A stretch of DNA of 64,000 bases from Balanoglossus misakiensis (GCA_040954595.2 JBECUI020000027.1:186001-250000); one strand, 5' to 3'; counted from the first letter of the stretch, positions 1 through 26,999 are shown. Translations and numbers: made by a program. Notes: a model not told the origin generated them from the sequence alone.

Positions 1-261
1 TCATCCATGGCATAGAGGCTGCGGAAACCCACAGGGGGCATCAGCGGGGCGGTAAAGGAATAGCGGGACAGCGACGGGGACGAACAGGAAAACAAGAATA
101 CCGGCAAGAGCAAAACAAGTAAAATCTGTATCTGATGGGAAAATGTAGAGCCTCTTGGGGCTACTATCTTACATGCACGTGAGTGAGTGAGTGAGTGAGT
201 GAGTGAGTGAGTGAGTGAGTGAGTGAGTGAGTGAGTTCTCCAACCTCTTCATATTATTCAT
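1..261 (-). CDS. Cassette 0, 5' part only (truncated by window); phase OFF
   Basis: ATG at 261, (TCAC)14, lipobox LFSC; frame hits TAA just after the tract. Confidence 0.85.
179..234 (-). repeat. (TCAC)14 tract, OFF
   Basis: 56 bp counted. Confidence 0.95.
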
Positions 262-296
262 ACCATATTCCTCCTAACAAAACATAAGTTAAGACT

Positions 297-325
297 AGTA
301 TACCTGATACTTTCGGCATTGGCAA
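297..325 (-). promoter_or_regulatory. Sigma70-type promoter of cassette 0 (same position in every cassette)
   Basis: TTGCCA-N17-TATACT, 36 bp upstream of ATG; AGGAGG 8 nt before ATG. Confidence 0.75.
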
Positions 326-654
326 GACCCCGTTCATACAAGCCTGCCCTGACAATACCCCAACGGCCTTAAAGCCGAAGAAAGGAAGCCCTCAGACCTC
401 AGCCCAAAGCTTGCAGCTCAGCCTCCGCAGGCCCAGACAATCCCGAAAGATTCACAAGCCCTGCCCCTGGGGAAAAAGTTACCTAGGACAGGGTCTTTCC
501 TGCATCCAGCATAGAGCTGTAGGGGACCAGGCGGTTTACAGCATAATTCCCTAACCTACACCGCCTGACATTCCTCAATAGAGCGGTTCCCCGGTTCGGT
601 AAGAACCTGAAAATCCGCTCACCACAGCAGCCCCGCCAAAGGCCGCCATCAGCA

Positions 655-1882
655 TTATGCCCCCGGCTGAATCTCTGTCTCTGCAAATTCAGACAGCCCG
701 GTAAGATTCACCGCGCTAACCCGGACAGACGCATTCGCAGGCAGAGTCTCGCCTTCCTGCAGCGTAACGCTGTGGGCGGTATCGCTGACATAGGCCACCG
801 GCATCCAATCCTCGCTCTGGGGGTTGCTGTATTCTATCAGATAGCCCTCGAAGGGGTTGTTGCCTAAATCGGAAACAGCCGGGGCTGTCCACGATACGGT
901 AAGGGTGTCGGTTAGCGTTGCTTCATCGGTTTGGACCTCCGCATTTAAGCCGGTCACGGCGGCGGGCGTGAGGGGATAGGGGTGGAGGTAATGTTGAAAA
1001 GAATACGGGGTGGCAAAAAATCTTGCTTGAAATCTCAATCCTAATTTTTTCCCGAAGTAATCCTTCTTATTATTGCTGAAATATTCACTAACGTCTTCCA
1101 GATGAACAATACCACCCTTATTGCTGCGATTAAAAAGCGACATATCTAGATCATTGGAAACATAGTCCAAGTGTAGTAATTGTATTCCTTGAATGTCATT
1201 ATAAGGATAGGGGCCAATATCAAACAGAGCATAGAAGTAATAAAGTCCATTTTGAAAGCCAGGGGGGAAAGGGGACAAGATGGTATAACGGACATCAAAG
1301 TCTTCCCTCGTCACTGTGGGGGCTATAGAAACGTCAATACTGGTTGATGTTGGAAGTACGGTAGCCTCATCCACCTCAGCGGTAAACGTTACCGGATCAC
1401 CAGATTCGGTATCCCTCTGAACGCTTAAGCGGTACAGATAAGAAGAATCTGCTGTTATGTCAGTATCGGTGTAAGTCTCGGTATCCGGTGGCAGGGTAGC
1501 AAGCGTGGTGTAGCTGACCCCGGCATCGGAAGATTTCTCAAGCAGAAATCCCGTTTCATTAACATTGAGATCCTTCCAGGCCAGCTGTACGCCTGCATCA
1601 TCCATGGCATAGAGGCTGCGGAAACCCACAGGGGGCATCAGCGGGGCGGTAAAGGAATAGCGGGACAGCGACGGGGTAGGACAGGAAAACAAGACTGATG
1701 AGAAGAGCAAAACAAGTAAAATCTGTATCTGATGGGAAAATGTAGAGCCTCTTGGGGCTACTATCTTACATGCACGTGAGTGAGTGAGTGAGTGAGTGAG
1801 TGAGTGAGTGAGTGAGTGAGTGAGTGAGTGAGTGAGTGAGTGAGTGAGTGAGTGAGTTCTCCAACTTCTTCATATTATTCAT
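655..1882 (-). CDS. Cassette 1 variable FN3 lipoprotein; phase OFF
   Basis: Body ORF 655-1710 intact; real ATG at 1882 is out of frame because of (TCAC)20. Confidence 0.9.
1776..1855 (-). repeat. (TCAC)20 tract, OFF
   Basis: 80 bp counted. Confidence 0.95.
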
Positions 1883-2270
1883 ACCATATTCCTCCTAACA
1901 AAACATAAGTTAAGCCTAGTATACCTGATACTTACGGCACTGACAAGACCCCGTTTTTACAAGCCTACCCTGACAATACTCCAACGGTCTTAAAGCCGAA
2001 GAAAGGTGAAAAAACATGGGTGATGCCGAAACTAACTTCCTCAAATTTGAATTGAGAACTCTTTCCGATTTTATCAACATTGTGTTTATACAGATTTTTT
2101 CCCCGAAGATTAAGGCTGGGGCAGAACCTTCAGGAAAGGGGGCCAGGCGGTTTACAGCACAATTCCCTAATCTACACCGCCTGACATTCTTCAATAGAGC
2201 GGTTCCCCGGTTCGGAAAGAACCTAAAAATCCGCTCACCGCAGCGGCCCCGCCAAAGGCCGCCGTCAGCA

Positions 2271-3496
2271 TTATGCCCCCGGCTGAATCTCTGTCTCTGC
2301 AAATTCAGACAGCCCGGCAAGATTCACCGCGCTAACCCGGACAGACGCTTTCGCAGGCAGAGTCTCGCCTTCCTGCAGTGTAACGCTGTGAGTCGTATCG
2401 CTGACATAGGCCACCGGCATCCAATCCTCGCTCTGGGGGTTGCTGTATTCTATCAGATAGCCTTCAAAGGGGTTGTTGCCTGAATCGGAAACAGCTGGGG
2501 CTGTCCACGATACGGTAAGGGTGTCGGTTTTGCTTGCCGTATCGGTTTGAACCTCCGCATTTAAGCCGGTAACGGCGGCAGGCGTGAGGGGGTATGGGTG
2601 GAGGTGGAATGGAAAAGTATAGGGAACACCTAGTAGGGATAAATCAACTCTAAATTCTGATCTCTTCCCAAATTGAAGCTTTTTATTATTGTCAAAATAC
2701 TGAAGAACGTCCCGTGGATAAAACGTAGCCCCCTTATCGTGACTGCGATTAAACAGCGAGAACTCTATATCACCCGTTGGAACGTCAAGGTTTAAAAGTA
2801 CTGATCCACTTCCTCCTTCATCGTAGAGGTAAGTACCGATGTCAAAAAGGGCATAGAAATAAAACTTAGGATTTGAACCTATTGAAGAAGGATTCAAAAC
2901 GGAAAAACGGACATCAAAGTCTCCCTTCGTCACTGTGGGGGCTACAGCAACATCAAGACTGGGGTTTGATGGAAGTACGGTAGCCTCATCCACCTCAGCG
3001 GTAAACGTTACCGGATCACCGGATTCGGTATCCCTCTGAACGCTTAAGCGATACAGATAAGAAGAATCTGCTGTTATGTCTGTATCGGTGTAAGTTTCGG
3101 TATCCGGTGGCAGGGTAGCAAGCGTGGTATAGCTGGCCCCGGCATCCGAAGATTTCTCAAGCAGAAATCCCGTTTCATTAACATTGAGATCCTTCCAGGC
3201 CAGCTGCACACCCACATCATCCATGGCATAGAGGCTACGGAAACCCACAGGAGGCATCAGCGGGGCGGTAAAGAAATACGGGAGAGGTGGCGACGGGGAC
3301 GAACAGGAAAACAAGACTGATGAGAAGAGCAAAACAAGTAAAATCTGTATTTGGTGGGAAAATATAGAGCCTCTGGGGGCTACTATCTTACATGTACGTG
3401 AGTGAGTGAGTGAGTGAGTGAGTGAGTGAGTGAGTGAGTGAGTGAGTGAGTGAGTGAGTGAGTGAGTGAGTTCTCCAACCTCTTCATATTATTCAT
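2271..3496 (-). CDS. Cassette 2 variable FN3 lipoprotein; phase OFF
   Basis: Body ORF 2271-3332; (TCAC)18. Confidence 0.9.
3398..3469 (-). repeat. (TCAC)18 tract, OFF
   Basis: 72 bp counted. Confidence 0.95.
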
Positions 3497-3889
3497 ACCA
3501 TATTCCTCCTAGCAAAACATAAGTTAAGCCTAGTATACCTGATACTTTCGGCATTGGCAAGACCCCGTTCTTACAAGCCTGCCCTGACAATACCCCAACG
3601 GTCTTAAAGCCGCAGAAAGGAAGCCCTCAGACCTCAGCCCAAAGCTTGCAGCTCAGCCTCCGCAGGCCCAGACAATCCCGAAAGATTCACAAGCCCTGCC
3701 CCTGGGAAAAAAGTTACCTAGGACAGGGTCTTTCCTGCATCCAGCATAGAGCTGTAGGGGACCAGGCGGTTTACAGCATAATTCCCTAACCTACACCGCC
3801 TGACATTCCTCAATAGAGCGGTTCCCCGGTTCGGAAAGAACCTGAAAATCCGCTCACCACAGCGGCCCCGCCAAAGGCCGCCGTCAGCA

Positions 3890-5136
3890 TTATGCCCCCG
3901 GCTGAATCTCTGTCTCTGCAAATTCAGACAGCCCGGCAAGATTCACCGCGCTAACCCGGACAGACGCATTCGCAGGCAGAGTCTCCCCTTCCTCCAGCGT
4001 AACGCTGTGGGCGGTATCGCTGACATAGGCCACCGGCATCCAATCCTCGCTCTGGGGGTTGCTGTATTCTATCAGATAGCCCTCGAAGGGGTTGTTGCCT
4101 AAATCGGAAACAGCGGGAGCTGTCCACGATACGGTAAGGGTGTCGGTTTTGCTTGCTGCATCGGTTTGGACCTCCGCCTTTAAGCCGGTCACGGCGGCGG
4201 GCGTGAGGGGGTATGGGTGGAGGTAATGTTGAAAAGTATACGGTTTGGCAAAACTTACTCCCTCAAATCTAAATTCTAATTTTTTCCCGAAGAAATCTTT
4301 CCTATTAGTGCTGAAATATTCACGAGCATCCTCTGGGTAGAAAGTACCACCCGTATTATCGCTCTGATTAAAAAGCGACATATCTATATCATTGGAAAGA
4401 TATTCTAGTTGTAGCACTCTTAATCCTCCTAAGCCTACACCCGGATCTGAATAGGGGCCAATATCAAACAGAGTAAAGAGGTTATAAATTCCACCTATAA
4501 AGGTAGTGATGGAAGAGGACAAGATGGTAAAACGGACATCAAAGTCTCCCTTCGTCACTGTGGGGGCTACAGAAACGTCAATAATATCGATTGATGTTGT
4601 AATTACGGTGGCCTCATCCACCTCAGCAGTAAACGTTACCGGATCACCAGATTTGGTATCCCTCTGAACGCTTAAGCGGTACAGATAAGAAGAATCTGCT
4701 TCTATGTCAGTATCGGTGTAAGTCTCGGTATCCGGTGGCAGGGTAGCAAGCGTGGTATAGCTGGCCCCGGCATCCGAAGATTTCTCAAGCAGAAATCCTG
4801 TTTCATTAGCATTGAGATCCTTCCAGGCCAGCTGCACACCCGCATCATCCATGGCATAGAGACTACGGAAACCCACAGGGGGCATCAGCGGGGCGGTAAA
4901 GAAATACGGGAGAGGTGGCGACGGGGACGAACAGGAAAACAAGACTGATGAGAAGAGCAAAACAAGTAAAATCTGTATTTGGTGGGAAAATGTAGAGCCT
5001 CTGGGGGCTACTATCTTACATGCACGTGAGTGAGTGAGTGAGTGAGTGAGTGAGTGAGTGAGTGAGTGAGTGAGTGAGTGAGTGAGTGAGTGAGTGAGTG
5101 AGTGAGTGAGTTCTCCAACCTCTTCATATTATTCAT
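3890..5136 (-). CDS. Cassette 3 variable FN3 lipoprotein; phase OFF
   Basis: Body ORF 3890-4960; (TCAC)21. Confidence 0.9.
5026..5109 (-). repeat. (TCAC)21 tract, OFF
   Basis: 84 bp counted. Confidence 0.95.
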
Positions 5137-5524
5137 ACCATATTCCTCCTAACAAAACTTAAGTTAAGCTTAGTATACCCGATACTTACGACTTCGACAA
5201 GACCCCGTTCATACAAGCCTGCCCTGACAATACCCCAGCGGCCTTAAAGCCGAAGAAAGGTAAAAAAAACATGGGTGATGCCGAAACTAACTTCCTCAAA
5301 TTTGAATTGAGAACTCTTTCCGATTTTATCAACATTGTGTTTATACAGATTTTTTCCCCGAAGATTAAGGCTGGGCAGAACCTTCAGGAAAGGGGGCCGG
5401 GCGGTTTACAGCACAATTCCCTAACCTACACCGCCTGACATTCCTCAATAGAGCGGTTCCCCGGTTCGGAAAGAACCTAAAAATCCGCTCACCGCAGCGG
5501 CCCCGCCAAAGGCCGCCGTCAGCA

Positions 5525-6734
5525 TTATGCCCCCGGCTGAATCTCTGTCTCTGCAAATTCAGACAACCCGGTAAGATTCACCGCACTAACCCGGACAGAC
5601 GCGTTCGCAGGCAGAGTCTCGCCTTCCTGCAGCGTAACGCTGTAGGTGGCTTCTCTCACCCAGGCCACCGGCATCCAATCCTCGCTCTGGGGATTGCTGT
5701 ATTCTATCAGATAGCCATCAAAGGGGTTGTTGCCTGAATCGGAAACAGCGGGGGCTGTCCACGATACGGTAAGGGTATCGGTTTTGCTTGCCGTATCGGT
5801 TTGAACCTCCGCCTTTAAGCCGGTCACGGCGGCGGGCGTGAGGGGGTATGGGTGGAGGTGGAATTGAAAAGGAAACGGTTGGCCAAAAGCTACTGCCTCA
5901 AATGAAAATTCTAATCTTTTTCCGAACTGATCCTTCCTATTATTGCGGAAATATTTACGAGCGTCTTCATCATCATAAGTACCACCCGTATCATCGTTCT
6001 GATTAAAAAGCGTAATAACTATATTGTCATAAGAAAGTTGAAACAATTGCAAAAGCTGCAATCCACGAGTGTTCACCTCATCATAGAGGTGGGGGCCAAT
6101 GTCAAAGAAAGCATAGAAAATATACCTATTAAATAATGCTAGGGGGGACAAAAGGGAAAAACGGACATCAAAGTCTTCCTTTGTCACTGTGGGGGCTATA
6201 GAAACGTCAATACTATCGGTTTGTGCTGTAATTATGGTAGCCTCATCCACCTCAGCGGTAAACGTTACTGGATCACTGGATTCGGTATCCCTCTGAACGC
6301 TTAAGCGGTACAGATAAGAAGAATCTGCTTCTATGTCAGTATCGGTGTAAGTCTCGGTATCCGGGGACAGGGTAGCAAGGGTGGTGTAGCTGGCCCCGGC
6401 ATCGGAAGATTTCTCAAGCAGAAATCCCGTTTCATTAACATTGAGATCCTTCCAGGCCAGCTGCACACCCGTATCATCCATGGCATAGAGGCTGCGGAAA
6501 CCCACAGGAGGCATCAGCGGGGAAGCAAAGGAATACAGGGACGGCAACGGGGACGAACAGGAAAACAAGAATGCCGGCAAGAGCAAAACAAGTAAAATCT
6601 GTATCTGATGGGAAAATGTAGAGCCTCTTGGGGCTACTATCTTACATGCACGTGAGTGAGTGAGTGAGTGAGTGAGTGAGTGAGTGAGTGAGTGAGTGAG
6701 TGAGTGAGTTCTCCAACTTCTTCATATTATTCAT
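5525..6734 (-). CDS. Cassette 4 variable FN3 lipoprotein; phase OFF
   Basis: Body ORF 5525-6586; (TCAC)14. Confidence 0.9.
6652..6707 (-). repeat. (TCAC)14 tract, OFF
   Basis: 56 bp counted. Confidence 0.95.
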
Positions 6735-7127
6735 ACCATATTCCTCCTAACAAAACTTAAGTTAAGCCTAGTATACCTGATACTTACGGCATTGGCAAGA
6801 CCCCGTTCATACAAGCCTGCCCTGACAATACCCCAACGGTCTTAAAGCCGAAGAAAGGAAGCCCTCAGACCTCAGCCCAAAGCCTGCAGCTCAGCCTCCG
6901 CAGGCCCAGACAATCCCGAAAGATTCATAAGCCCTGCCCCTGGGGAAAAAGTTACCTAGGACAGGGTCTTTCCTGCATCCAGCATAGAGCTGTAGGGGGC
7001 CGGGCGGTCTACAGCATAATTCCCTAACCTACACCGCCTGACATTCCTCAATAGAGCGGTTTCCCGATTCAAAAAGAACCGGAAAATCCGCTCCCAGCAG
7101 CGGCACCGCAAAACGCCGCAGTCAGCA

Positions 7128-8353
7128 TCATCCCCCCGGCTGAATCTCCGTCTCAGCAGATTCAGACAACCCGGTAAGATTCACCGCTCTGACCCGGACA
7201 GACGCTTTCGCAGGCAGAGTCTTCCCCTCCTGCAGCGTAACGCTGTGAGCGGTATCGCTGACATAGGCCACCGGCATCCAATCCTCGCTCTGGGGATTGC
7301 TGTATTCTATCAGATAGCCTTCAAAGGGATTGTTGCCTGAATCGGAAACAACCGGGGCTGTCCACGATACGGTAAGGGTATCGGTTTTGCTTGCCGTATC
7401 GGTTTGAACCTCCGCTTTTAAGCCGGTAACGGCGGCGGGTGGGAGGGGGTAGGGGTGGAGGTGGAATTGAAAAGAATACGGTTGGGTAAAAAATCTTCCT
7501 TGAAGTCGAAATCCTAATTTTTCCCCAAAGTAATCCTTCCTATTATTGTTAAAATATAGATCAACATCCGTTGGGTGGAAAATACCACCCTTATCATTGC
7601 TGCGATTAAAAAGCGATATATATATATCTATATCATTGGTGGGAACAGAATCCAATTGTCGTAATTGTAATCCATCAGTGGCGTCATCATAGGTATCGGA
7701 GCCAATGTCAAACAGAGCAAAGATGTAATAATTTCCATGTGTGAAGCCAGGAGGGAAAGGGGCCAACATGGTAAAACTGACATCAAAGTCTCCCCTCGTC
7801 ACTGTGGGGGCTACAGCAACGTCAATATCGGGACTGATTGATGGAAGTACGGTAGCCTCATCCACCTCAGCGGTAAACGTTACCGGATCACCAGATTCGG
7901 TATCCCTCTGAACGCTTAAGCGGTACAGATAAGAAGAATCTGCTTCTATGTCAGTATCGGTGTAAGTCTCGGTATCCGGTGGCAGGGTAGCAAGCGTGGT
8001 ATAGCTGACCCCGGAATCTGAAGATTTCTCAAGCAGAAATCCCGTTTCATTAACATTGAGATCCTTCCAGGCCAGCTGTACGCCTGCATCATCCATGGCA
8101 TAGAGACTACGGAAACCCACAGGGGGCATCAACGGGGCGGCAAAGGAATACCGGGACAGCGACGGGGACGAACAGGAAAACAAGAATGCCGGCAAGAGCA
8201 AAACAAGTAAAATCTGTATCTGATGGGAAAATATAGAGCCTCTTGGGGCTACTATCTTACATGCACGTGAGTGAGTGAGTGAGTGAGTGAGTGAGTGAGT
8301 GAGTGAGTGAGTGAGTGAGTGAGTGAGTTCTCCAACCTCTTCATATTATTCAT
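7128..8353 (-). CDS. Cassette 5 variable FN3 lipoprotein; phase OFF
   Basis: Body ORF 7128-8201; (TCAC)15. Confidence 0.9.
8267..8326 (-). repeat. (TCAC)15 tract, OFF
   Basis: 60 bp counted. Confidence 0.95.
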
Positions 8354-8735
8354 ACCATATTCCTCCTAGCAAAACATAAGTTAAGACTAGTATACCTGAT
8401 ACTTACGACTTCGACAAGACCCCGTTCATACAAGCCTACCCCAACGGCCTTAAAGCCGAAGAAAGGAAGCCCTCAGACCTCAGCCCAAAGCCTGCAGCTC
8501 AGCCTCCGCAGGCCCAGACAATCCCGAAAGATTCATAAGCCCTGCCCCTGGGAAAAAAGTTACCTAGGACAGGGTCTTTCCTGCATCCAGCATAAACCTG
8601 TAGGGGGCCGGGCGGTTTACAGCATAATTTCCTAACCTACACCGCCTGACATTCCTCAATAGAGCGGTTCCCCGGTTCGGAAAGAACCTAAAAATCCGCT
8701 CACCGCAGCGGCCCCGCCAAAGGCCGCCGTCAGCA

Positions 8736-9951
8736 TTATGCCCCCGGCTGAATCTCTGTCTCTGCAAATTCAGACAGCCCGGCAAGATTCACCGCGCTAA
8801 CCCGGACAGACGCATTCGCAGGCAGAGTCTCGCCTTCCTGCAGCGTAACGCTGTGGGCGGTATCGCTGACATAAGCCACCGGCATCCAATCCTCGCTCTG
8901 GGGATTGCTGTATTCTATCAGATAGCCCTCGAAGGGGTTGTTGCCTGAATCGGAAACAGCTGGAGCTGTCCACGATACGGTAAAGGTGTCGGTTTTGCTT
9001 GCAGTATCGGTTTGGACCTCCGCCTTTAAGCCGGTAACGGCGGCGGGCGTGAGGGGGTATGGGTGGAGGTGGAATGGGAAAGGATATGATAAGGTAGCGA
9101 ATTCACCTTCAAATATAAATCCTAATCTTTGTCCGAAGTAATCCTTCCTATTATTGCTGAAATATCCACCAGCGTCGGACACATAAACAATACCACCCTT
9201 ATCATTGCTGCGATTAAAAAGCGACATATCTACTATATCATTGGAATCATAATCCAATTGTAGGATTTTTAATCCTAAATTGGGCCCATGGGGATCATAG
9301 GGATAGGGTCCAATGTCAAACAGAGCATAGATGTGATAATTTCCACTTGGGCCGGGGGGGAAAGGGGGCAAGATGGTAAAACTGACATGAAAGTCTTCCT
9401 TTGTCACTGTGGGGACTACAGAAGCGTCAATACTGGGGTTCACTGGAATTACGGTAGCCTTATCCACCTCGGCGGTAAACGTTACCGGATCACCGGATTC
9501 GGTATCCCTCTGAACGCTTAAGCGGTACAGATAAGAAGAATCTGCTTCTATGTCAGTATCGGCGTAAGTCTCGGTATCCGGTGGCAGGGTAGCAAGCGTG
9601 GTATAGCTGGCCCCGGCATCCGAAGATTTCTCAAGCAGAAATCCCGTTTCATTAGCATTGAGATCCTTCCAGGCCAGCTGTACGCCTGCATCATCCATGG
9701 CATAGAGGCTACGGAAACCCACAGGAGGCATCAGCGGGGCGGCAAAGGAATACAGGGACGGCGACGGGGACGAACAGGAAAACAAGAATGCCGACAAGAG
9801 CAAAACAAGTAAAATCTGTATCTGATGGGAAAATATAGAGCCTCTTGGGGCTACTATCTTACATGCACGTGAGTGAGTGAGTGAGTGAGTGAGTGAGTGA
9901 GTGAGTGAGTGAGTGAGTGAGTGAGTTCTCCAACCTCTTCATATTATTCAT
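8736..9951 (-). CDS. Cassette 6 variable FN3 lipoprotein; phase OFF
   Basis: Body ORF 8736-9803; (TCAC)14. Confidence 0.9.
9869..9924 (-). repeat. (TCAC)14 tract, OFF
   Basis: 56 bp counted. Confidence 0.95.
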
Positions 9952-10350
9952 ACCATATTCCTCCTAACAAAACATAAGTTAAGACTAGTATACCTAATAC
10001 TTACGACTTCGACAAGACCCCGTTCATACAAGCCTGCCCTGACAATACCCCAACGGCCTTAAAGCCGAAGAAAGGAAGCCCTCAGACCTCAGACCTCAGC
10101 CCAAAGCCTGCAGCTCAGCCTCCGCAGGCCCAGACAATCCCGAAAGATTCACAAGCCCTGCCCCTGGGAAAAAGTTACCTAGGACAGGGTCTTTCCTGCA
10201 TCCAGCATAGAGCTGTAGGGGACCAGGCGGTTTACAGCATAATTCCCTAACCTACACCGCCTGACATTCCTCAATAGAGCGGTTCCCCGGTTCGGAAAGA
10301 ACCTAAAAATCCGCTCACCACAGCAGCCCCGCCAAAGGCCGCCGTCAGCA

Positions 10351-11553
10351 TTATGCCCCTGGCTGAATCTCTGTCTCTGCAAATTCAGACAACCCGGTAA
10401 GATTCACCGCCCTGACCCGGACAGACGCGTTCGCAGGCAGAGTCTCGCCTTCCTGCAGCGTAACGCTGTGGGCGGTATCGCTGACATAGGCCACCGGCAT
10501 CCAATCCTCGCTCTGGGGATTGCTGTATTCTATCAGATAGCCCTCAACGGGGTTGTTGCCTAAATCGGAAACAGCGGGAGCTGTCCACGATACGGTAAGG
10601 GTATCGGTTTTGCTTGCCGTATCGGTTTGAACCTCCGCCTTTAAGCCGGTAACGGCGGCGGGCGTGAGGGGATAGGGGTGGAGGTGGAATTGAAAAGAAT
10701 ACAGTATGGTAAAGAATTCACTTTCAAATATAAATCCTAATCTTTTGCCGAAGTAATCCTTCCTATTATTGCTGAAATATTCACCAGCGTCGGACACATA
10801 AACAATACCACCCTTATCATTGCTGCGATTAAAAAGCGACATATCTATATCATTGGAATCATGAATCAATTGTAGCATTAGTAATCCAGTCGTGGCCCCA
10901 TTGGGATCATAGGGATAGGGGCCAATGTCAAACAGAGTATAGAGGTTATAAACTCCACTTGGGGGGGGGACAAAATGGTAAAACGGACATCAAAGTCTTC
11001 CCTCGTCACTGTGGGGGCTACCGCAACATCAAAACTGGTGCTTCTCGGAAGTACGGTGGTCTCATCCACCTCAGCGGTAAACGTTACCGGTTCACCGGAT
11101 TCGGTATCTCTCTGAACGCTTAAGCGGTACAGATAAGAAGAATCTGCTTCTATGTCAGTATCGGTGTAAGTCTCGGTATCCGGTGGCAGGGTAGCAAGCG
11201 TGGTATAGCTGACCCCGGCATCTGAAGATTTCTCAAGCAGAAATCCTGTTTCATTAGCATTGAGATCCTTCCAGGCCAGCTGCACACCTGCGTCATCCAT
11301 GGCGTAGAGACTACGGAAACCCACAGGAGGCATCAGCGGGGCGGTAAAGGAATACAGGGACGGCGATGGGGACGAACAGGAAAACAAGAATGCCGACAAG
11401 AGCAAAACAAGTAAAATCTGTATCTGCTGGGAAAATGTAGAGCCTCTTGGGGCTACTATCTTACATGCACGTGAGTGAGTGAGTGAGTGAGTGAGTGAGT
11501 GAGTGAGTGAGTGAGTGAGTGAGTGAGTTCTCCAACCTCTTCATATTATTCAT
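10351..11553 (-). pseudogene. Cassette 7 variable FN3 lipoprotein; OFF, plus an internal frameshift at a C9 run
   Basis: (TCAC)14; body split into 10878-11405 and 10351-10878 by the G9 run at 10961-10969. Confidence 0.85.
11471..11526 (-). repeat. (TCAC)14 tract, OFF
   Basis: 56 bp counted. Confidence 0.95.
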
Positions 11554-11931
11554 ACCATATTCCTCCTAACAAAACTTAAGTTAAGCCTAGTATACCTGAT
11601 ACTTACGGCACTGACAAGGCCCCGTTCATACAAGCCTACCCCAACGGCCTTAAAGCCGAAGAAAGGTAAAAAAAACATGGGTGATGCCGAAACTAACTTC
11701 CTCAAATTTGAATTGAGAACTCTTTCCGATTTTATCAACATTGTGTTTATACAGACTTTTCCCCCGAAGATTAAGGCTGGGGCAGAACCTTCAGGAAAGG
11801 GGGCCAGGCGGTTTACAGCATAATTCCCTAACCTACACCGCCTGACATTCCTCAATAGAGCGGTTCCCCGGTTCGGAAAGAACCTAAAAATCCGCTCACC
11901 GCAGCGGCCCTGCCAAAGGCCGCCGTCAGCA

Positions 11932-13162
11932 TTATGCCCCCGGCTGAATCTCTGTCTCTGCAAATTCAGACAACCCGGTAAGATTCACCGCCCTGACCCG
12001 GACAGACGCGTTCGCAGGCAGAGTCTCGCCTTCCTGCAGCGTAACGCTGTGGGCGGTACCGCTGACATAGGCCACCGGCATCCAATCCTCGCTCTGGGGG
12101 TTGCTGTATTCTATCAGATAGCCTTCAAAGGGGTTGTTGCCTAAATCGGAAACAGCTGGGGCTGTCCACGATACGGTAAGGGTGTCGGTTTTGCTTGCCG
12201 TATCGGTTTGAACCTCCGCATTTAAGCCGGTAACGGCGGCAGGCGTGAGGGGGTATGGGTGGAGATGGAATTGAAAAGAATGCGGTTGGGCAAAAAATCT
12301 TCCTTCAAATTCTAATCCTAATTTTTCCCCGAAGTAATCCTTCCTATTATTGCTGAAATATTCACCAGCGTCGGACACATAAACAATACCACCCTTATCA
12401 TTGCTACGATTAAAAAGCGACATATCTATATCATTGGAAACATAATCCAATTGTAGCACTCGTAATCTATGAGTGGCCGCCTCATCATATGGATAGGGGC
12501 CAATGTCAAACAGAGGATAGAGGTAATAAATTCCATATGCAAAGTCAGGAGGGAAAGGGCCCAAAATGGTAAAACTGACATCAAAGTCTCCCCTCGTCAC
12601 TGTGGGGGCTACAGAAACGTCAAGATCGGGACTGATTGTTGTGGCCTTATCCACCCGGGGGGTAAACGTTACCGGGTCACTGGATTCGGTATCCCTCTGA
12701 ACGCTTAAGCGGTACAGATAAGAAGAATCTGCTTCTATGTCTGTATCGGTGTAAGTTTCGGTATCTGGTGGCAGGGTAGCAAGCGTGGTGTAGCTGACCC
12801 CGGCATCGGAAGATTTCTCAAGCAGAAATCCCGTTTCATTAACATTGAGATCCTTCCAGGCCAGCTGTACGCCTGCATCATCCATGGCATAGAGGCTGCG
12901 GAAACCCACAGGGGGCATCAGCGGGGCGGTAAAGGAATAGCGGGACAGCGACGGGGACGAACAGGAAAACAAGAATACCGGCAAGAGCAAAACAAGTAAA
13001 ATCTGTATCTGATGGGAAAATGTAGAGCCTCTTGGGGCTACTATCTTACATGCACGTGAGTGAGTGAGTGAGTGAGTGAGTGAGTGAGTGAGTGAGTGAG
13101 TGAGTGAGTGAGTGAGTGAGTGAGTGAGTGAGTGAGTTCTCCAACCTCTTCATATTATTCAT
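11932..13162 (-). CDS. Cassette 8 variable FN3 lipoprotein; phase OFF
   Basis: Body ORF 11932-12990; (TCAC)20. Confidence 0.9.
13056..13135 (-). repeat. (TCAC)20 tract, OFF
   Basis: 80 bp counted. Confidence 0.95.
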
Positions 13163-13555
13163 ACCATATTCCTCCTAACAAAACATAAGTTAAGACTAGT
13201 ATACCTGATACTTTCGGCATTGGCAAGACCCCGTTCATACAAGCCTGCCCTGACAATACCCCAACGGCCTTAAAGCCGAAGAAAGGAAGCCCTCAGACCT
13301 CAGCCCAAAGCTTGCAGCTCAGCCTCCGCAGGCCCAGACAATCCCGAAAGATTCACAAGCCCTGCCCCTGGGGAAAAAGTTACCTAGGACAGGGTCTTTC
13401 CTGCATCCAGCATAGAGCTGTAGGGGACCAGGCGGTTTACAGCATAATTCCCTAACCTACACCGCCTGACATTCCTCAATAGAGCGGTTCCCCGGTTCGG
13501 TAAGAACCTGAAAATCCGCTCACCACAGCAGCCCCGCCAAAGGCCGCCATCAGCA

Positions 13556-14759
13556 TTATGCCCCCGGCTGAATCTCTGTCTCTGCAAATTCAGACAGCCC
13601 GGTAAGATTCACCGCGCTAACCCGGACAGACGCATTCGCAGGCAGAGTCTCGCCTTCCTGCAGCGTAACGCTGTGGGCGGTATCGCTGACATAGGCCACC
13701 GGCATCCAATCCTCGCTCTGGGGGTTGCTGTATTCTATCAGATAGCCCTCGAAGGGGTTGTTGCCTAAATCGGAAACAGCCGGGGCTGTCCACGATACGG
13801 TAAGGGTGTCGGTTAGCGTTGCTTCATCGGTTTGGACCTCCGCCTTTAAGCCAGTAACGACGGCGGGCGTGAGGGGATATGGGTGGAGGTAGAATTGAAA
13901 AGAATACGGTTGGGTAAAAAATACTCCCTCAAATGAAAATTCTAATCTTTTTCCGAACTGAGTATCCCTGTTATTGATTGAATATGTATAAGCATCTTCC
14001 TCGTGGAAAGTAATCCCATTATCACTGTTGCGATTAAAAAGCGACACACCTATATCATTGCTGGAAGAAGGATCAGCTTGGAACATTAGCACTCGAGTGG
14101 TCCCCTCATAGAGATCGGGGCCAATATCAAAGAGCGCATAGAAAAAAAATGTATAATTAGTTGGGAGATTCAAAACGGAAAAACGGACATCAAAGTCTCC
14201 CTTTGTCACTGTTGGGGCTACAGCAACGTCAAGATCGGGGATGTTTGATGGAAGTACGGTGGCCTTATTCACCCTGGCGGTAAACGTTACCGAGTCACCG
14301 GATTCGGTATCCCTCTGAACGCTTAAGCGGTACAGATAAGAAGAATCTGCTTCTATGTCTGTATCGGTGTAAGTCTCGGTATCCGGTGGCAGGGTAGCAA
14401 GCGTGGTGTAGCTGGCCCCGGCATCGGAAGATTTCTCAAGCAGAAATCCTGTTTCATTAACATTGAGATCCTTCCAGGCCAGCTGCACACCCGCATCATC
14501 CATGGCGTAGAGACTACGGAAACCCACAGGGGGCATCAGCGGGGCGGTAAAGAAATACGGGAGAGGTGGCGACGGGGACGAACAGGAAAACAAGACTGAT
14601 GAGAAGAGCAAAACAAGTAAAATCTGTATCTGATGGGAAAATGTAGAGCCTCTGGGGGCTACTATCTTACATGTACGTGAGTGAGTGAGTGAGTGAGTGA
14701 GTGAGTGAGTGAGTGAGTGAGTGAGTGAGTGAGTTCTCCAACCTCTTCATATTATTCAT
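13556..14759 (-). CDS. Cassette 9 variable FN3 lipoprotein; phase OFF
   Basis: Body ORF 13556-14611; (TCAC)14. Confidence 0.9.
14677..14732 (-). repeat. (TCAC)14 tract, OFF
   Basis: 56 bp counted. Confidence 0.95.
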
Positions 14760-15151
14760 ACCATATTCCTCCTAACAAAACTTAAGTTAAGACTAGTATA
14801 CCTAATACTTACGACTTCGACAAGACCCCGTTCATACAAGCCTGCCCTGACAATACCCCAACGGCCTTAAAGCCGAAGAAAGGAAGCCCTCAAACCTCAG
14901 CCCAAAGCCTGCAGCTCAGCCTCCGCAGGTCCAGACAATCCCGAAAGATTCACAAGCCCTGCCCCTGGGAAAAAGTTACCTAGGACAGGGTCTTTCCTGC
15001 ATCCAGCATAGAGCTGTAGGGGGCCGGGCGGTTTACAGCATAATTCCCTAACCTACACCGCCTGACATTCCTCAATAGAGCGGTTCCCCGGTTCGGAAAG
15101 AACCTAAAAATCCGCTCACCACAACAGCCCCGCCAAAGGCCGCCGTCAGCA

Positions 15152-16386
15152 TTATGCCCCCGGCTGAATCTCTGTCTCTGCAAATTCAGACAGCCCGGCA
15201 AGATTCACCGCGCTAACCCGGACAGACGCGTTCACAGGCAGAGTCTCGCCTTCCTGCAGCGTAACGCTGTGGGCGGTATCGCTGACATAGGCCACCGGCA
15301 TCCAATCCTCGCTCTGGGGGTTGCTGTACTCTATCAGGTAGCCTTCAAAGGGGTTGTTGCCAGAATCGGAAACAGCGGGGGCTGTCCACGATACGGTAAG
15401 GGTGTCGGTTTTGCTTGCTGCATCGGTTTGAACCTCCGCCTTTAAGCCGGTAACGGCGGTGGGCAGGACAGGATAGGGGTGGAGGTGGAATTGAAAAGAA
15501 TACGGTTGGGCAAAAAATACTCCCTCAAATACAAATTCTAATTTTTCCCCAAAGTAATCCTTCCTATTATTGTTAAAATATAGACCAGCATCCTGTAGGT
15601 AGAAATCACCACCCTTCTCATTGCTTCGATTAAAAAGCGAAATATCTAGATCACCGGAACTATAAAGTAATTGTGTTACTTTTACTCCTGAAGTGGGATT
15701 TCCACCATAGCGATAGGGTCCGATATCAAAAAGAGTATAGAGGTTGTAAACTCTTCCTCCTGAGAAGCCGGGAGGGAAAGGGGACGAAATGGTAAAACGG
15801 ACATCAAAGTCTTCCCTCGTCACTGTGGGGGCTACAAGAGTGTCAAGACCGGTATTTATTGGAATTACGGTGGCCTCATCCACCTCAGCGGTAAACGTTA
15901 CCGGGTCACTGGATTCGGTATCCCTCTGAACGCTTAAGCGGTACAGATAAGAAGAATCTGCGGTTATGTCAGTATCGGTGTAAGTCTCGGTATCCGGTGG
16001 CAGGGTAGCAAGCGTGGTATAGCTGGCCCCGGCATCCGAAGATTTCTCAAGCAGAAATCCCGTTTCATTAACATTGAGATCCTTCCAGGCCAGCTGCACA
16101 CCCGCATCATCCATGGCATAGAGACTACGGAAACCCACAGGGGGCATCAGCGGGGCGGTAAAGAAATACGGGAGAGGTGGCGACGGGGACGAACAGGAAA
16201 ACAAGACTGATGAGAAGAGCAAAACAAGTAAAATCTGTATTTGGTGGGAAAATATAGAGCCTCTGGGGGCTACTATCTTACATGCACGTGAGTGAGTGAG
16301 TGAGTGAGTGAGTGAGTGAGTGAGTGAGTGAGTGAGTGAGTGAGTGAGTGAGTGAGTGAGTTCTCCAACCTCTTCATATTATTCAT
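15152..16386 (-). CDS. Cassette 10 variable FN3 lipoprotein; phase OFF
   Basis: Body ORF 15152-16222; (TCAC)18. Confidence 0.9.
16288..16359 (-). repeat. (TCAC)18 tract, OFF
   Basis: 72 bp counted. Confidence 0.95.
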
Positions 16387-16758
16387 ACCATATTCCTCCT
16401 AACAAAACTTAAGTTAAGCCTAGTATACCTAATACTTACGACTTCGACAAGACCCCGTTCATACAAGCCTGCCCTGACAATACCCCAGTGGCCTTAAAGC
16501 CGCAGAAAGGTAAAAAAAACATGGGTGATGCCGAAACTAACTTCCTCAAATTTGAATTGAGAACTCTTTCCGATTTTATCAACATTTTGTTTCTACAGAT
16601 TTTTTTTGGCAGACTAAGGTTGGGATTAAATTTCCAGGAAGGAAACCGCACCGTTACAGCGTGATTCCCCTGGCATTCCTCATAGAGCGGTTTCCCGATT
16701 CAAAAAGAACCGGAAAATCCGCTCCCAGCAGCGCCCCCGCAAAACGCCGCCGTCAGCA

Positions 16759-17991
16759 TCATCCCCCCGGCTGAATCTCCGTCTCAGCCGATTCAGACAA
16801 CCCGGCAAGATTCACCGCCCTGACCCGGACAGACGCGTTCGCAGGCAGAGTCTTCCCCTCCTGCAGCGTAACGCTGTGGGCGGTATCGCTGACATAGGCC
16901 ACCGGCATCCAATCCTCGCTCTGGGGATTGCTGTATTCTATCAGATAGCCCTCAACGGGGTTGTTGCCTGAATCGGAAACAACCGGGGCTGTCCACGATA
17001 CGGTAAGGGTGTCGGTTTTGCTTGCCGTATCGGTTTGAACCTCTGCTTTTAGGCCGGTAACGGCGGCGGGCGTGAGGGGGTAGGGGTGGAGGTAATGTTG
17101 AAAAGGATACGGTTTGGCAAAAATTACTTCCTCAAATCTAAATTCTAATTTTTTCCCGAAGAAATCTTTCCTATTAGTGCTGAAATATTCACGAGCATCC
17201 TTTGGGTAGAAAGTACCACCCGTATTATCGCTCTGATTAAAAAGCGACATATCTATATCATTGGAAAGATATTCTAGTTGTAGCACTATTAATCCTCCTC
17301 TACTACCCGGAACTATACCCGGATCTAGATGGGGGCCAATATCAAACAGAGCATAGAAGTTCCAAGTTCCATTTTGGAGGGGAGACAAAATGGTAAAACG
17401 GACATCAAAGTCTTCCCTCGTCACTGTGGGGGCTACAGCAACATCAAGACTGGGGTTTCTTGGAAGTACGGTGGCCTCATCCACCTCAGCGGTAAACGTT
17501 ACCGGGTCACTGGATTCGGTATCCCTCTGAACGCTTAAGCGGTACAGATAAGAAGAATCTGCGGTTATGTCAGTATCGGTGTAAGTTTCGGTATCCGGGG
17601 ACAGGGTGGCAAGCGTGGTATAGCTGGCCCCAGCATCGGAAGATTTCTCAAGCAGAAATCCTGTTTCATTAACATTGAGATCCTTCCAGGCCAGCTGCAC
17701 ACCCGCATCATCCATGGCGTAGAGACTACGGAAACCCACAGGGGGCATCAGCGGGGCGGTAAAGAAATACGGGAGAGGTGGCGACGGGGACGAACAGGAA
17801 AACAAGACTGATGAGAAGAGCAAAACAAGTAAAATCTGTATCTGATGGGAAAATGTAGAGCCTCTGGGGGCTACTATCTTACATGTACGTGAGTGAGTGA
17901 GTGAGTGAGTGAGTGAGTGAGTGAGTGAGTGAGTGAGTGAGTGAGTGAGTGAGTGAGTGAGTGAGTTCTCCAACCTCTTCATATTATTCAT
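16759..17991 (-). CDS. Cassette 11 variable FN3 lipoprotein; phase ON (full length 410 aa)
   Basis: Continuous ORF MNNMKRLEN(SLTH)6S...LLVLLFSSVLFSC; FN3-like motifs (LAWKD..NETGF..Y.YRL; LTVSWTAP..GYLIEY..VRVRAVN). Confidence 0.95.
   Translation of the reverse strand: MNNMKRLENSLTHSLTHSLTHSLTHSLTHSLTHSRTCKIVAPRGSTFSHQIQILLVLLFSSVLFSCSSPSPPLPYFFTAPLMPPVGFRSLYAMDDAGVQLAWKDLNVNETGFLLEKSSDAGASYTTLATLSPDTETYTDTDITADSSYLYRLSVQRDTESSDPVTFTAEVDEATVLPRNPSLDVAVAPTVTREDFDVRFTILSPLQNGTWNFYALFDIGPHLDPGIVPGSRGGLIVLQLEYLSNDIDMSLFNQSDNTGGTFYPKDAREYFSTNRKDFFGKKLEFRFEEVIFAKPYPFQHYLHPYPLTPAAVTGLKAEVQTDTASKTDTLTVSWTAPVVSDSGNNPVEGYLIEYSNPQSEDWMPVAYVSDTAHSVTLQEGKTLPANASVRVRAVNLAGLSESAETEIQPGG
17889..17964 (-). 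repeat. (TCAC)19 tract, ON
   Basis: 76 bp counted; keeps the reading frame. Confidence 0.95.
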
Positions 17992-18026
17992 ACCATATTC
18001 CTCCTAACAAAACTTAAGTTAAGCCT

Positions 18027-18055
18027 AGTATACCTAATACTTACGACTTCGACAA
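18027..18055 (-). promoter_or_regulatory. Sigma70-type promoter of the ON cassette
   Basis: TTGTCG-N17-TATACT. Confidence 0.7.
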
Positions 18056-18149
18056 GACCCCGTTCATACAAGCCTGCCCTGACAATACCCCAACGGCCTT
18101 AAAGCCGAAGAAAGGAAGCCCTCAGATCTTAGCCCAAAGCCTGCAGCTC

Positions 18150-18440
18150 AGCCTCCGCAGGCTCAGACAATCCCGAAAGATTCTCAAGCCCTGACACGGA
18201 AACAAGTTTTTGGGGACAGGGTTTTTTTGCATCCAGCGTAACGCCCTAGGGGGTTTCACCCACCCAGGCCTCAAGGCACTCTGGGGGCTGCTGTATCTCA
18301 CCAGGTAGCCCCCAGAGAGAGTTGTTCCCCGACCCGCAAAGAACTGACGCCGTCCACGATACAGTAGGAGTATTGGTTTTGCTTGTCGTATCGGTTTTAC
18401 CCTAGTCTTCAGGTTGCTAACGGCGGCGGGCAGAAGGGGA
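18150..18440 (-). pseudogene. Eroded relic of the lipoprotein C-terminal FN3 coding region
   Basis: Matches cassette 3' ends (gtccacgatac, ggttttgcttg.cgtatcggttt, taacggcggcgggc, cagacaa..aagatt) with indels. Confidence 0.75.
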
Positions 18441-19108
18441 ATGAAAGATTAGATAGAAACTTCTTCTTTTCTTAAGCTTTTTTGGCACCCTTCTTATCAA
18501 TACCCGGCTTGTTTTTTTGTTTTTTACACTTGAACAGAAGGTGGTTCTGAACCTTCTTCCCCTTCTATGAACTTAAAGATGAGGAAACTCCACACAGGCA
18601 CGGCCGCAAAACCTAATCGGATTAAAAGGAAGGGGGAGCTACGATTAAGAGCCTCAACACAAAAATGGGTAGACTCAGAATTCTACAGATCTGTGGGAAT
18701 GCTTGTAAGTAAAGACAACAGCTGACACAGGAGTTAAGTGAGGACATACAGCCGCTCAGGTTTTGGCAGATGAGGAATATGGAGCCTAAGAAAATCTTTT
18801 CAATTTCATGGGGAAAAAATTTTATTTCATCGAGGCCTTCTTAATTTTCTTAAGGAATACGGTGCTGCATAAAAATACTATTTTCCCCAGTTAAGCATCT
18901 TTCTTGCCCAATTGCCTAAGTCTTTCATTTAGAACGGGCCGTTATGACACAGTTTTTAGGAAGCAAATCTTGTCTGGGTCACTATGACACGCAAACCCAC
19001 TCTGCATTAGGCTTCAATCCCCCTTTTCCTCATTGTTTCTTGGTCCATCCCAACTATTTTCACCATAAAAAATGTTTCCTTGTACCTATTTTTTAGATAA
19101 ATGGCAAA

Positions 19109-19124
19109 TGGCACCATTCTTGCT
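19109..19124 (+). promoter_or_regulatory. Sigma54 (RpoN) -24/-12 promoter
   Basis: TGGCACCATTCTTGCT: GG-N10-GC, fits TGGCAC-N5-TTGCW. Confidence 0.75.
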
Positions 19125-19154
19125 TGTATGAATGGTAGGAGATATAGATTTATA

Positions 19155-19994
19155 ATGCATAAAGTTGATGTTACCCTAACAACTTACCTGGAAGAAATAA
19201 ATTCCATTGCTCTTCTCACTCGTGAAGAAGAGGTGGAACTTTCCCGCAAAGCCCTTTTAGGGGACTCTGCGGCCCGGAAGAGACTTATCGAAGCCAATTT
19301 ACGTTTTGTGGTTAATGTGGCCAAGAAATACCAGAATCAGGGTCTGCCTCTGGAAGACCTTATCAGCGAAGGTAATATCGGATTGATGAACGCCATTGAG
19401 CGTTTTAATCCAGAAAGAGGCTACCATTTCATCTCCTATGCCGTTTGGTGGATTCGCCAAGCCATCCTCAAAGCTATTTATGAAAAATCCCGGATGATCC
19501 GCCTACCTCTCAATAGGATTAACGAATTAATCCGGTTAGGGAAGGTTCGAAAGGTTCTGTTGGAAGATTCCGGCGAGGAACCAAGCATAGCTGAGCTGGC
19601 TTCAAAAACCGGAATTTCCGAAAAAGATATAAAAAATATCAAGTCTATCAGCAGAGACCTTGTTTCTTTGGACACTCCCGTCTGTGACGAACAACACTCC
19701 GCCACCTTGGGTGATTTCGTGGTAGATGAAGCCAGCACGAGTCCAGAAAAAAAAGTTTTACACACTGCTTTAAAAGATGATGTGGAAGCAGTTCTGGCCA
19801 CCCTGAGTCCCAAGGAATCCGACATTCTACGCCATCGTTTTGGACTGTCGGAACGTAAGCCTCTGTCGCTTAAGGATGTTGGAGAACGTTATGGCCTTAC
19901 AAAGGAACGAATTCGCCAACTGGAAACGAAGGCCCTTCAACGCCTGCGCCATCCCTCTCGTCGGCAGTATCTCAAGGATTATGTTGCGGCCTAG
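19155..19994 (+). CDS. rpoS: RpoS-like / group 2 sigma-70 factor lacking region 1.1
   Basis: YLEEI, LIEANLRFVV..AKKY, DLISEGNIGL, YAVWWIRQAI, region 4 TKERIRQLE; likely ATG 19155 after AGGAGA; rpoS symbol inferred from size and sigma54 promoter. Confidence 0.8.
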   Translation: MHKVDVTLTTYLEEINSIALLTREEEVELSRKALLGDSAARKRLIEANLRFVVNVAKKYQNQGLPLEDLISEGNIGLMNAIERFNPERGYHFISYAVWWIRQAILKAIYEKSRMIRLPLNRINELIRLGKVRKVLLEDSGEEPSIAELASKTGISEKDIKNIKSISRDLVSLDTPVCDEQHSATLGDFVVDEASTSPEKKVLHTALKDDVEAVLATLSPKESDILRHRFGLSERKPLSLKDVGERYGLTKERIRQLETKALQRLRHPSRRQYLKDYVAA

Positions 19995-20224
19995 AGCGGA
20001 AAAGAGTCATCTTGTCTTGCTTGGCTTTTCACTTTCGGGGAAAAATACGGTTCTTTATGACGTTTAAAACCGCATATCTCCCCCGGGGGACCCTAGCCTA
20101 TTGCTTGACAAGTGATTTTTCCAATGGCTCCCCCATAACTCATGAATTTTTCATTCGATATTGACTTTCTTCCCCTATATAACATAGCTTTTTCCTATAG
20201 TATTCCTTAAAAAGAGAGAACTGT

Positions 20225-25253: not shown

Positions 25254-26083
25254 CGAACTTTTTTTAAGGAAAAAAAGGCCACCTGCCGTCCAGTCTTTCC
25301 CCCGCTTTTTCGGTAGGAGAAGAATTCTCGTTCTCGACAGGCCGTACAGAAGCCTGCTCTCCCTATATGCTCCTTTTTTAAACCAGCCTCCAGGAGCCAG
25401 GCAAGGTTTGCCGCTTCAAGGTCCAGGGAGTAAGCTCCGGAATTCTGAGGAGTAAATACCCCCGGAGGATAGGAAAAGTTTGCCGACATTTCTTCGAAGA
25501 CCTCCCTCCCCACAAAGTAGCAGCACGAGCTGATTCCAGGACCTATAACGGCCACCAGATCGGCTGGTCGGCTCCCTCGGCAGGCAACAAGCTGGCTTAC
25601 TGCCGCCGCCGTTATGCCCTGGGCCGTCCCCCGCCATCCGGCATGGCAAAGAGCCCCACTTTGTTGTTCGGGATCATAAAGGATAACCGGAAGACAGTCT
25701 GCCAGAAACACAACCAATAAGGCTCCGGTCTGGGTGACGAGTAAGGCATCCGTCCTGGAAATAGAAGGATGCTCCGAGTCTCGTCCCGAACCACATGCTT
25801 TAGCATCAACAAGAGCAATCTCCTTACCATGGACCTGTTCCCCCGAGGTCCAGGAAGACAGATCGTAGCCGAGGGCGGACAGGAAATAACGGCGATTCTC
25901 CTGGACAGTCTCAGAATCCTCCCCAACCGCATAGGCAAGATTAAGGGACTCCCAAGGACCGCTACCAAGTCCACCGCCCCGGGTGCTCAACCCCGCCTCG
26001 ATGAAGCTATTCCATGGCTTCAAGGCATTCCAGCGGTAAAACACCAAGCCGCCTTGAGTTTCTTTTGTCATTCCATCGATCAT
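25250..26083 (-). CDS. pgeF: PgeF/YfiH family (laccase-domain / purine nucleoside phosphorylase-like) protein
   Basis: STRGGG, QVHG, ADCLPV, HAGWRGT, IGPGI, CTAC..FFSYR. Confidence 0.9.
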   Translation of the reverse strand: MIDGMTKETQGGLVFYRWNALKPWNSFIEAGLSTRGGGLGSGPWESLNLAYAVGEDSETVQENRRYFLSALGYDLSSWTSGEQVHGKEIALVDAKACGSGRDSEHPSISRTDALLVTQTGALLVVFLADCLPVILYDPEQQSGALCHAGWRGTAQGITAAAVSQLVACRGSRPADLVAVIGPGISSCCYFVGREVFEEMSANFSYPPGVFTPQNSGAYSLDLEAANLAWLLEAGLKKEHIGRAGFCTACREREFFSYRKSGGKTGRQVAFFSLKKVR

Positions 26084-26915: not shown

Positions 26916-26999
26916 TTTTTCTCTACTGAAACACTTCAGCTTGTGGGGACGGGCAAAGAAGCGCCAGTATCTTGTCTAGGGAGCGATTTTTTTTTATTT

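Follow-up and report, generated by a model that had tools for sequence, protein, structure and literature searches.

A candidate phase-variable tandem array of TCAC-gated lipoprotein genes in a probable spirochaete

The systems closest in design to the locus described here, a tandem array of predicted surface-lipoprotein genes at one end of a 64,000-nucleotide (nt) stretch deposited under Balanoglossus misakiensis (GCA_040954595.2 JBECUI020000027.1:186001-250000; the whole stretch is hereafter the window), come from Neisseria, Mycoplasma and the spirochaetes. The Borrelia vls and vlp/vsp systems pair a single expression site with silent cassettes, and their genes are conserved at the ends and variable in the middle. 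For vlsE, segmental recombination from silent cassettes is described in the accessible part of one source (PMC4534519). The same part describes Neisseria opa as a set of about 11 complete copies, of which zero to two are expressed, with a CTCTT frameshift repeat in the signal peptide and recombining hypervariable regions, and M. gallisepticum vlhA as tandem full-length lipoprotein genes with their own promoters and a trinucleotide repeat upstream of the promoter (PMC4534519). Among spirochaetes, Treponema phagedenis carries the clustered lipoprotein genes vpsA, vpsB and prrA, with allelic variants and (TA)n repeats in putative promoters, according to the available portion of a review (PMC13474147). 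T. pallidum tpr genes combine promoter poly-G tracts, CT repeats that frameshift tprA and gene conversion of tprK, so far as the available text of PMC3656149 goes, and T. pallidum is one of the species to which a phase-variation review, likewise available in part, ascribes repeat-mediated repertoires (PMC11868660).

We conclude that the locus is probably a tandem family of at least 12 predicted surface-lipoprotein genes, each phase-switched through its number of TCAC units, with recombination of the middle domain between copies. A first-pass annotation of the window had proposed such an array as a candidate new antigenic-variation system.

Repeat tracts and the reading frame

The minus strand of the window carries 12 perfect (TCAC)n tracts, and the window holds no other long simple repeat. 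Counted from position 17964 leftwards (units 1-12), n is 19, 18, 14, 20, 14, 14, 15, 14, 21, 18, 20 and 14; in 200 shuffles of the bases, tandem copies of a 4-mer never exceeded three. The tracts belong to head-to-tail units of about 1.6 kb (period 1597-1640 nt), 11 of which are whole, while unit 12 is truncated by the window edge, so that the initial description of every unit as complete holds for 11 of them. The order of elements is the same throughout: promoter-like site, AGGAGG, ATG, (TCAC)14-21, lipoprotein signal and a body made of two FN3 modules around a variable domain. AGGAGG precedes the ATG in all 12 units, as does a sigma-70-like site, TTG(T/C)C(A/G)-17-TATACT, that matches 9 or 10 of 12 consensus letters and was identified by consensus scan only. 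The ATG lies 27 nt ahead of the tract in 12/12 units, with a second in-frame ATG at -18. This spacing is as first described; on the other side of the tract, the TTG codon that opens the ORF (open reading frame) called in OFF copies (see below) lies 65 nt downstream rather than 68 nt, by the tract definition used.

The ATG joins the body only if n mod 3 equals 1, which is true of one unit in 12 (unit 1, n = 19, 17991-16759, 410 amino acids (aa)). We call this unit ON and the others OFF; the OFF units have remainders of 0 (four units) or 2 (seven units) and encode peptides of 30-41 aa from the ATG, their frames stopping two or four codons past the tract. Both OFF frames stop within five codons of the tract in all 12 units, compared with 139 of 3240 in-body positions, although the units are non-independent. 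Every unit has the kind of repeat that marks a contingency gene, namely a long perfect repeat in the 5' coding region, with a unit length not divisible by three, whose number sets the frame. The frame rule and the placement of the stops support the per-gene frameshift switch that had been proposed. The stronger claim that n mod 3 alone sets translation applies with one exception, unit 5, whose frame is broken a second time at a G9 run.

The tracts also differ between copies that are otherwise alike. Around their tracts, units 4 and 12 show no difference over 886 nt (708 upstream and 178 to the window edge), yet n is 20 in one and 14 in the other; units 1 and 3 have identical flanks over 315 nt, yet n is 19 and 14. 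Because these pairs with identical flanks differ by six and five repeat units, tract length appears to change faster than substitutions accumulate, a comparison made among paralogs only.

An ORF caller reports nine of the 10 whole OFF copies as ORFs of 351-357 aa started at TTG, the misannotation that the first-pass annotation had foreseen. Taken at face value, these ORFs would suggest that OFF copies are still translated, through the internal TTG or by reinitiation, and that the tract does not gate expression. We find this hardly credible: the TTG stands within the hydrophobic stretch, nine residues before the lipobox Cys and without a Shine-Dalgarno sequence upstream, and a product started there would be without a signal peptide because the codon sits inside that stretch. 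The in-frame alternative starts in general leave at most nine residues before the Cys and are without a Shine-Dalgarno sequence, for which reason OFF copies should yield no exported protein; we find no workable internal start in them.

Protein domains, selection and recombination

All 12 units encode an LFS-C lipobox after a 14-residue hydrophobic stretch (mean hydropathy 2.3-2.5), for which LFYG-C offers a spirochaetal comparison in the accessible part of PMC2229028; the n-region of the unit 1 signal is unusually long, at about 50 aa. The mature chain would consist of two FN3 modules with a middle domain of about 130 aa between them. The C-terminal module scores above the Pfam fn3 cut-off in 10/10 bodies and also matches FN3 entries of the PDB, and the N-terminal FN3-like module has 28-34% identity to the FN3 repeats of protein P0001 (pairwise E 1e-10). 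Pfam returned no opacity family and no VlhA match for these 10 bodies. The lipoprotein anatomy proposed from the first reading, with its FN3-variable-FN3 body, is supported at the level of domain prediction.

Divergence is concentrated in the middle domain. Compared with unit 1, the other nine intact bodies have 78-88% aa identity overall and 57-79% in the middle domain, where DNA identity among units drops from about 0.95 to 0.68. Across the 10 intact bodies (units 5 and 12 left out; pairs non-independent), the two FN3 parts have dN/dS ratios of 0.19 and 0.28, compared with 0.80 for the middle domain. As judged from these alignments, the ratios show purifying selection on the FN3 scaffold and suggest relaxed or mixed selection on the middle domain.

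These values bear on whether the array does anything at all. With 11 of 12 copies out of frame, a decayed remnant bordering the array, nearby genes that look broken and an IS256-family transposase present, it might be a recently amplified and largely inert array, built by unequal crossing-over and conversion, drifting neutrally in its tracts and composed mostly of pseudogenes. We consider this improbable. The middle domain has diverged to a pS of 0.31 and differs in length through indels, yet 10 of 11 bodies remain open in frame and its framework residues are invariant; the FN3 parts have the low dN/dS just given, and the lipobox Cys is kept in 12/12 units.

The middle domain is without a credible relative in the sequence searches made. 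A word search for relatives of the protein gave two generic FN3 matches among 3539 candidates, none of 7996 longer proteins scored, and none of three genomes from the family of the spirochaete genome G096 (see below) held a relative of the protein. The best matches of an atlas search, at 0.78 and 0.89, are leads only. A middle-domain profile run against 1.84 billion representatives returned two matches, which we rejected as artefacts, both being long repeat proteins with summed weak stretches. With AlphaFold2, the body reached a predicted local distance difference test (pLDDT) score of 41 and the middle domain one of 34. Foldseek with the first model found just generic FN3 chains at a template-modelling (TM) score of about 0.2, and we accordingly make no fold claim for the middle domain.

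Several observations indicate exchange between copies. The nearest neighbour shifts along the length of each of the 11 units compared, and close informative sites are incompatible at a rate of 0.32 against 0.54 when permuted (1000 permutations, 215 sites, 11 units, p = 0.001). Units 3 and 11 are identical over 708 nt, yet across the middle domain their identity in windows of 50 columns is only 28-86%. Within this domain, a patch of 98-100% identity is common to units 1 and 9. On this evidence the units are recombination mosaics, and the incompatibility test and the mosaic patches support the recombinational shuffling that had been suggested. The inter-unit spacers (e.g., window 16450-16700) are of two unrelated types of about 130 nt that alternate, one after units 1, 4, 8 and 10 and the other after the rest; this may be a further sign of shuffling.

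Exact matches of at least 20 nt to other units cover 0.70 of the variable region of unit 1 and 0.21-0.63 in the others, from which direction is not inferable, although the value for unit 1 gives a weak hint that this ON copy was a recent recipient. A different organization would fit that hint, in which unit 1 is the copy usually expressed and those downstream form an out-of-frame archive that donates segments by gene conversion, as vls does for vlsE. Unit 1 is indeed the sole ON copy and stands at the head of the array, a position with a chance probability of 1 in 12, and its exact-match coverage is the highest. Such an arrangement nevertheless seems unlikely. Silent cassettes are promoterless, whereas all 12 copies here share the promoter-like site, ribosome site, ATG and tract; the coverage of unit 9, at 0.63, mirrors that of unit 1, so that direction is unreadable; the longest identical tract (708 nt) joins two OFF copies, units 3 and 11; and the last 128 nt before the tract of unit 1 equal those of unit 2.

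Table 1. Array units and adjoining features in the window, numbered from its first letter
Feature	Coordinates	Strand	Details
Unit 1, ON	16759..18055	-	Promoter-like site 18055-18027; ATG 17991; (TCAC)19 17964-17889; lipobox Cys codon 17796; 410 aa; Pfam fn3 E 1.3e-9
Unit 1 variable middle domain	17077..17502	-	Matching position in every unit; without detectable relative
Unit 2, OFF	15152..16450	-	ATG 16386; (TCAC)18 16359-16288
Unit 3, OFF	13556..14823	-	ATG 14759; (TCAC)14 14732-14677; 3' end and downstream spacer equal unit 11 over 708 nt
Unit 4, OFF	11932..13226	-	ATG 13162; (TCAC)20 13135-13056; tract flanks equal unit 12 over 886 nt
Unit 5, OFF	10351..11617	-	ATG 11553; (TCAC)14 11526-11471; second frame break, G9 run 10961-10969
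Unit 6, OFF	8736..10015	-	ATG 9951; (TCAC)14 9924-9869
Unit 7, OFF	7128..8417	-	ATG 8353; (TCAC)15 8326-8267
Unit 8, OFF	5525..6798	-	ATG 6734; (TCAC)14 6707-6652
Unit 9, OFF	3890..5200	-	ATG 5136; (TCAC)21 5109-5026; variable-domain patch 98-100% identical to unit 1
Unit 10, OFF	2271..3560	-	ATG 3496; (TCAC)18 3469-3398
Unit 11, OFF	655..1946	-	ATG 1882; (TCAC)20 1855-1776
Unit 12, OFF	1..325	-	ATG 261; (TCAC)14 234-179; body continues past window edge
GC-rich hairpins after unit 1 stop codon	16632..16761	-	Comparable hairpins predicted downstream of units 2 and 4
Decayed remnant of older copy's 3' FN3 end	18141..18439	-	Directly upstream of unit 1; about 68% DNA and 40-46% aa identity to units; frame break and stop
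Sigma-70 family factor, then pyruvate phosphate dikinase (PPDK)	19101..22891	+	Pfam; basis of taxonomic call

Sequence depth, carrier and comparison genomes

Three sequencing runs were available, all from one sample that is possibly the source of the window, so that run X1, used here, is not independent of it. Depths are those of single contigs only, as summed depth is no copy number. A single X1 contig carries the unique right flank, at depth 12.3. The variable pieces (those listed) have depths of 5-14.9, and several of them are without difference to the window, whereas single contigs of conserved pieces have depths of 41 and 82.9, 3 to 7 times the flank. Because conserved pieces are deep and variable pieces are near flank depth, we consider this a true multicopy family and not collapsed strains, in agreement with the first-pass annotation.

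The same data speak to whether variants of one or a few genes from different strains were chained into a false array, or whether errors of the consensus account for the repeat counts. Frame breaks of the sort expected from a noisy consensus occur in the window; none of the X1 records listed spans the array, and X1 has middle-domain alleles missing from the window; the 886 nt over which units 4 and 12 are identical extend to the window edge; and X1 may itself derive from the source sample. Even so, an artefact of this kind appears very improbable. Collapse predicts the reverse of the observed depths, in which several variable pieces match X1 exactly near flank depth and conserved ones are several times deeper, and each of the 12 tracts is a perfect repeat in whole units that keeps one phase relative to its flanks. 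This clears the array, but not each repeat count. The unit 5 break is either an assembly error or a polymorphic homopolymer; the G run is longer in one X1 contig, at depth 3.2 of 13.4. A separate X1 contig of 26,235 nt (depth 8.8) has a divergent copy near one end, with 40 differences in 208 nt, and may come from the opposite end of the array or from another locus.

The carrier is a probable spirochaete (Spirochaetota), as first suggested, judging from the genes beside the array. The sigma factor has 58-59% identity to three spirochaete genomes as against 44% and 33% in two non-spirochaete controls, and the order of the sigma and PPDK genes is kept in spirochaete genomes G096 and G032. For another window protein, four of 15 homologues have an organism name, all of them Spirochaetaceae or Spirochaetes (43-47% identity). 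PPDK compared with 301 spirochaete genomes reached 65% identity at best, with no close relative among them, and stretches of about 20 kb beside the sigma gene in three genomes of the G096 family hold no array.

Elsewhere in the window, Pfam identifies a Mutator/IS256-family transposase gene (40723-41919) and two tandem S-adenosylmethionine (SAM) hydroxide adenosyltransferase genes (51034-52766) with an energy-coupling factor (ECF) transporter set downstream. There are also two apparent fusions, either real or caused by indels: a cytidylyltransferase-like protein joined to EamA at 39228-40658 (Pfam), and two ATP-binding cassette (ABC) ATPases in one frame of 669 aa at 30621-32630.

The GC-rich hairpins after the stop codons fold at -48.8 to -61.4 kcal/mol over 130 nt (three of 11 units folded, without shuffle control) and give weak terminator-scan matches; by this folding they are possibly a terminator or an mRNA 3' structure. 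Attenuation by a hairpin just past the tract was rejected, as the fold there (-7 to -9 kcal/mol over 60 nt) is too weak, and so was a G-quadruplex as a shared array signal, the motif being present in just 2/12 units and outside the array too. An Rfam scan of window 1-24000 gave no matches.

A search of genome contigs with the leader pattern gave no matches, and none of 30 metagenome loci is homologous to the array by tblastn or blastn. In three of these 30 loci (L004, L024 and L025), ATG-(TCAC)7-10 lies inside the n-region of a predicted signal peptide, always in frame; by their motifs, the bodies of L004 and L024 look like a thermonuclease and that of L025 like a phospholipase-D-type nuclease. 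Of 401 spirochaete genomes searched, three contain (TCAC)8. In the stretches read, these tracts precede genes resembling methyltransferases or glycosyltransferases, for the most part within short leader frames and not in lipoprotein arrays. In two spirochaetes of 25-27% GC, G125 (L194:10607-11935) and G281 (L198:5560-6405), (TCAC)15-20 directly precedes methyltransferase-like genes with a ribosome site of their own, and G125 has two such genes in tandem; two of the three tracts are in a short ATG-started leader frame, and the arrangement suggests a possible leader-peptide or coupling switch. In a third spirochaete, G389 (36% GC; L196:9383-11278), an ATG is followed by a long TCAC tract that an assembly gap interrupts, and a Glyco_transf_22-like gene lies downstream.

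A (TCAC)12 scan over all genomes found at least 120 stretches. Orbaceae bacterium ac157xtp (G002) alone has 415 overlapping matches to seven TCAC units; at six of its loci (L031, L035, L046, L079, L087 and L199), perfect (TCAC)14-25 lies just ahead of the signal-peptide region of a paralog family. An ATG occurs within 45 nt in 4/6 of these tracts, and all four are out of frame. This family resembles the array in placing a repeat after the ATG of paralogs with signal peptides; it differs in comprising unrelated secreted proteins of 440-480 aa, 42-62% identical, dispersed on the chromosome singly or in small clusters, in a gammaproteobacterium. A literature search on TCAC-gated paralogs of G002 found no paper.

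Proposed mechanism and relation to known systems

In the model that we favor, slipped-strand gain or loss of TCAC units would set the frame of the signal peptide, with n mod 3 = 1 as the ON state. Each copy would be transcribed from its own promoter, and in living cells slippage would reach the rates of phase variation. The product of an ON copy would be lipidated at the Cys of LFS-C and displayed on the surface, its two FN3 modules serving as a constant scaffold, while recombination between copies has shuffled the variable middle domain. Selection, whether from host recognition, phage or the choice of attachment ligand, could keep few copies ON and favor new middle-domain variants. A more elaborate version is speculative and stands only a small chance of being right: a spirochaete from an unsampled lineage would unite Opa-type switching with vls-type conversion in a single array, with near one-at-a-time expression, the head copy as favored expression site and recipient, and the middle domain as a diversified binding module on the FN3 scaffold.

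A number of findings weigh against the favored model. One ON copy in 12 is only borderline below the third expected by chance (p = 0.054). The sole array-bearing data besides the window are contigs broken at the tracts, which yield no tract-length histograms because of these breaks, and no within-population tract variation is seen in them. A one-base indel separates the window from X1 and X2 at 19088, and window 23513-28285 contains frame breaks, about five in a DEAD helicase gene plus others in two neighboring genes, which are either consensus errors or gene decay. The helicase C-terminus was assigned by Pfam; its broken neighbors are presumably a DJ-1/PfpI-like gene and an acetate kinase gene, from their motifs. 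Given such indel errors and frame breaks elsewhere in the window, individual repeat counts, ON/OFF states and the unit 5 break may be off. With a dN/dS below 1, the middle domain gives no proof of diversifying selection, and gene conversion by itself could preserve silent copies intact. Finally, the middle domain gave no usable structural model (pLDDT 34), and surface exposure and ligand binding are putative.

If the model holds, an Opa-like frameshift family would have arisen again in this phylum, with a new protein, where described surface variation proceeds by silent-cassette conversion or by promoter repeats in few genes. Having switching and recombination in a single locus would make both readable on single long molecules, and the orphan middle domain, which accommodates heavy variation in its loops, is a candidate for a new binding fold. 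Arrays of this kind are probably under-counted, because callers annotate OFF copies as intact TTG ORFs and assemblies of short reads are interrupted at the tracts.

The claim of a new kind of system is not supported, since Neisseria opa, a family that the first-pass annotation overlooked, already has the same logic (PMC4534519) and repeat-controlled paralogous surface genes are reported in spirochaetes too. The label antigenic likewise goes further than the evidence. Like opa, the array has many complete copies, a frameshifting repeat in the signal peptide, few copies ON and recombined variable regions; unlike opa, it uses a TCAC tetramer in place of CTCTT, encodes an FN3 lipoprotein without detected sequence likeness to Opa (no Pfam match) and belongs to a probable spirochaete. 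Opa is moreover a beta-barrel, and opa loci are dispersed, in contrast to the one contiguous tandem array here. With vlhA the array shares tandem complete lipoprotein genes, each with its own promoter or promoter-like site and its own repeat, but its repeat lies downstream of the ATG and changes the frame, whereas the vlhA switch is transcriptional, and no homology was found.

The spirochaete systems are compared as far as the available texts describe them. The T. phagedenis locus likewise has clustered lipoprotein genes with variable repeat numbers, although it consists of three genes with promoter repeats as opposed to a 12-copy homologous family switched in the coding frame. The tpr genes are also a spirochaete paralog family with repeat-based phase variation and recombination; however, they encode outer-membrane proteins, switching and conversion act on different genes and tprK draws on donor cassettes, while every copy of the array has both features. 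The Borrelia cassette systems share with it a surface lipoprotein (predicted here), conserved ends, a variable middle and segmental recombination; in contrast to vls and tprK donors, 12/12 units have a promoter-like site, AGGAGG and ATG, and the copies are complete and repeat-gated. In the literature searched, which covered few subscription journals, no coding-frame-switched lipoprotein array was described in a spirochaete. The logic is thus known and seemingly undescribed in spirochaetes; the array belongs to none of these families and, by analogy, would work like opa in a vlhA-like layout.

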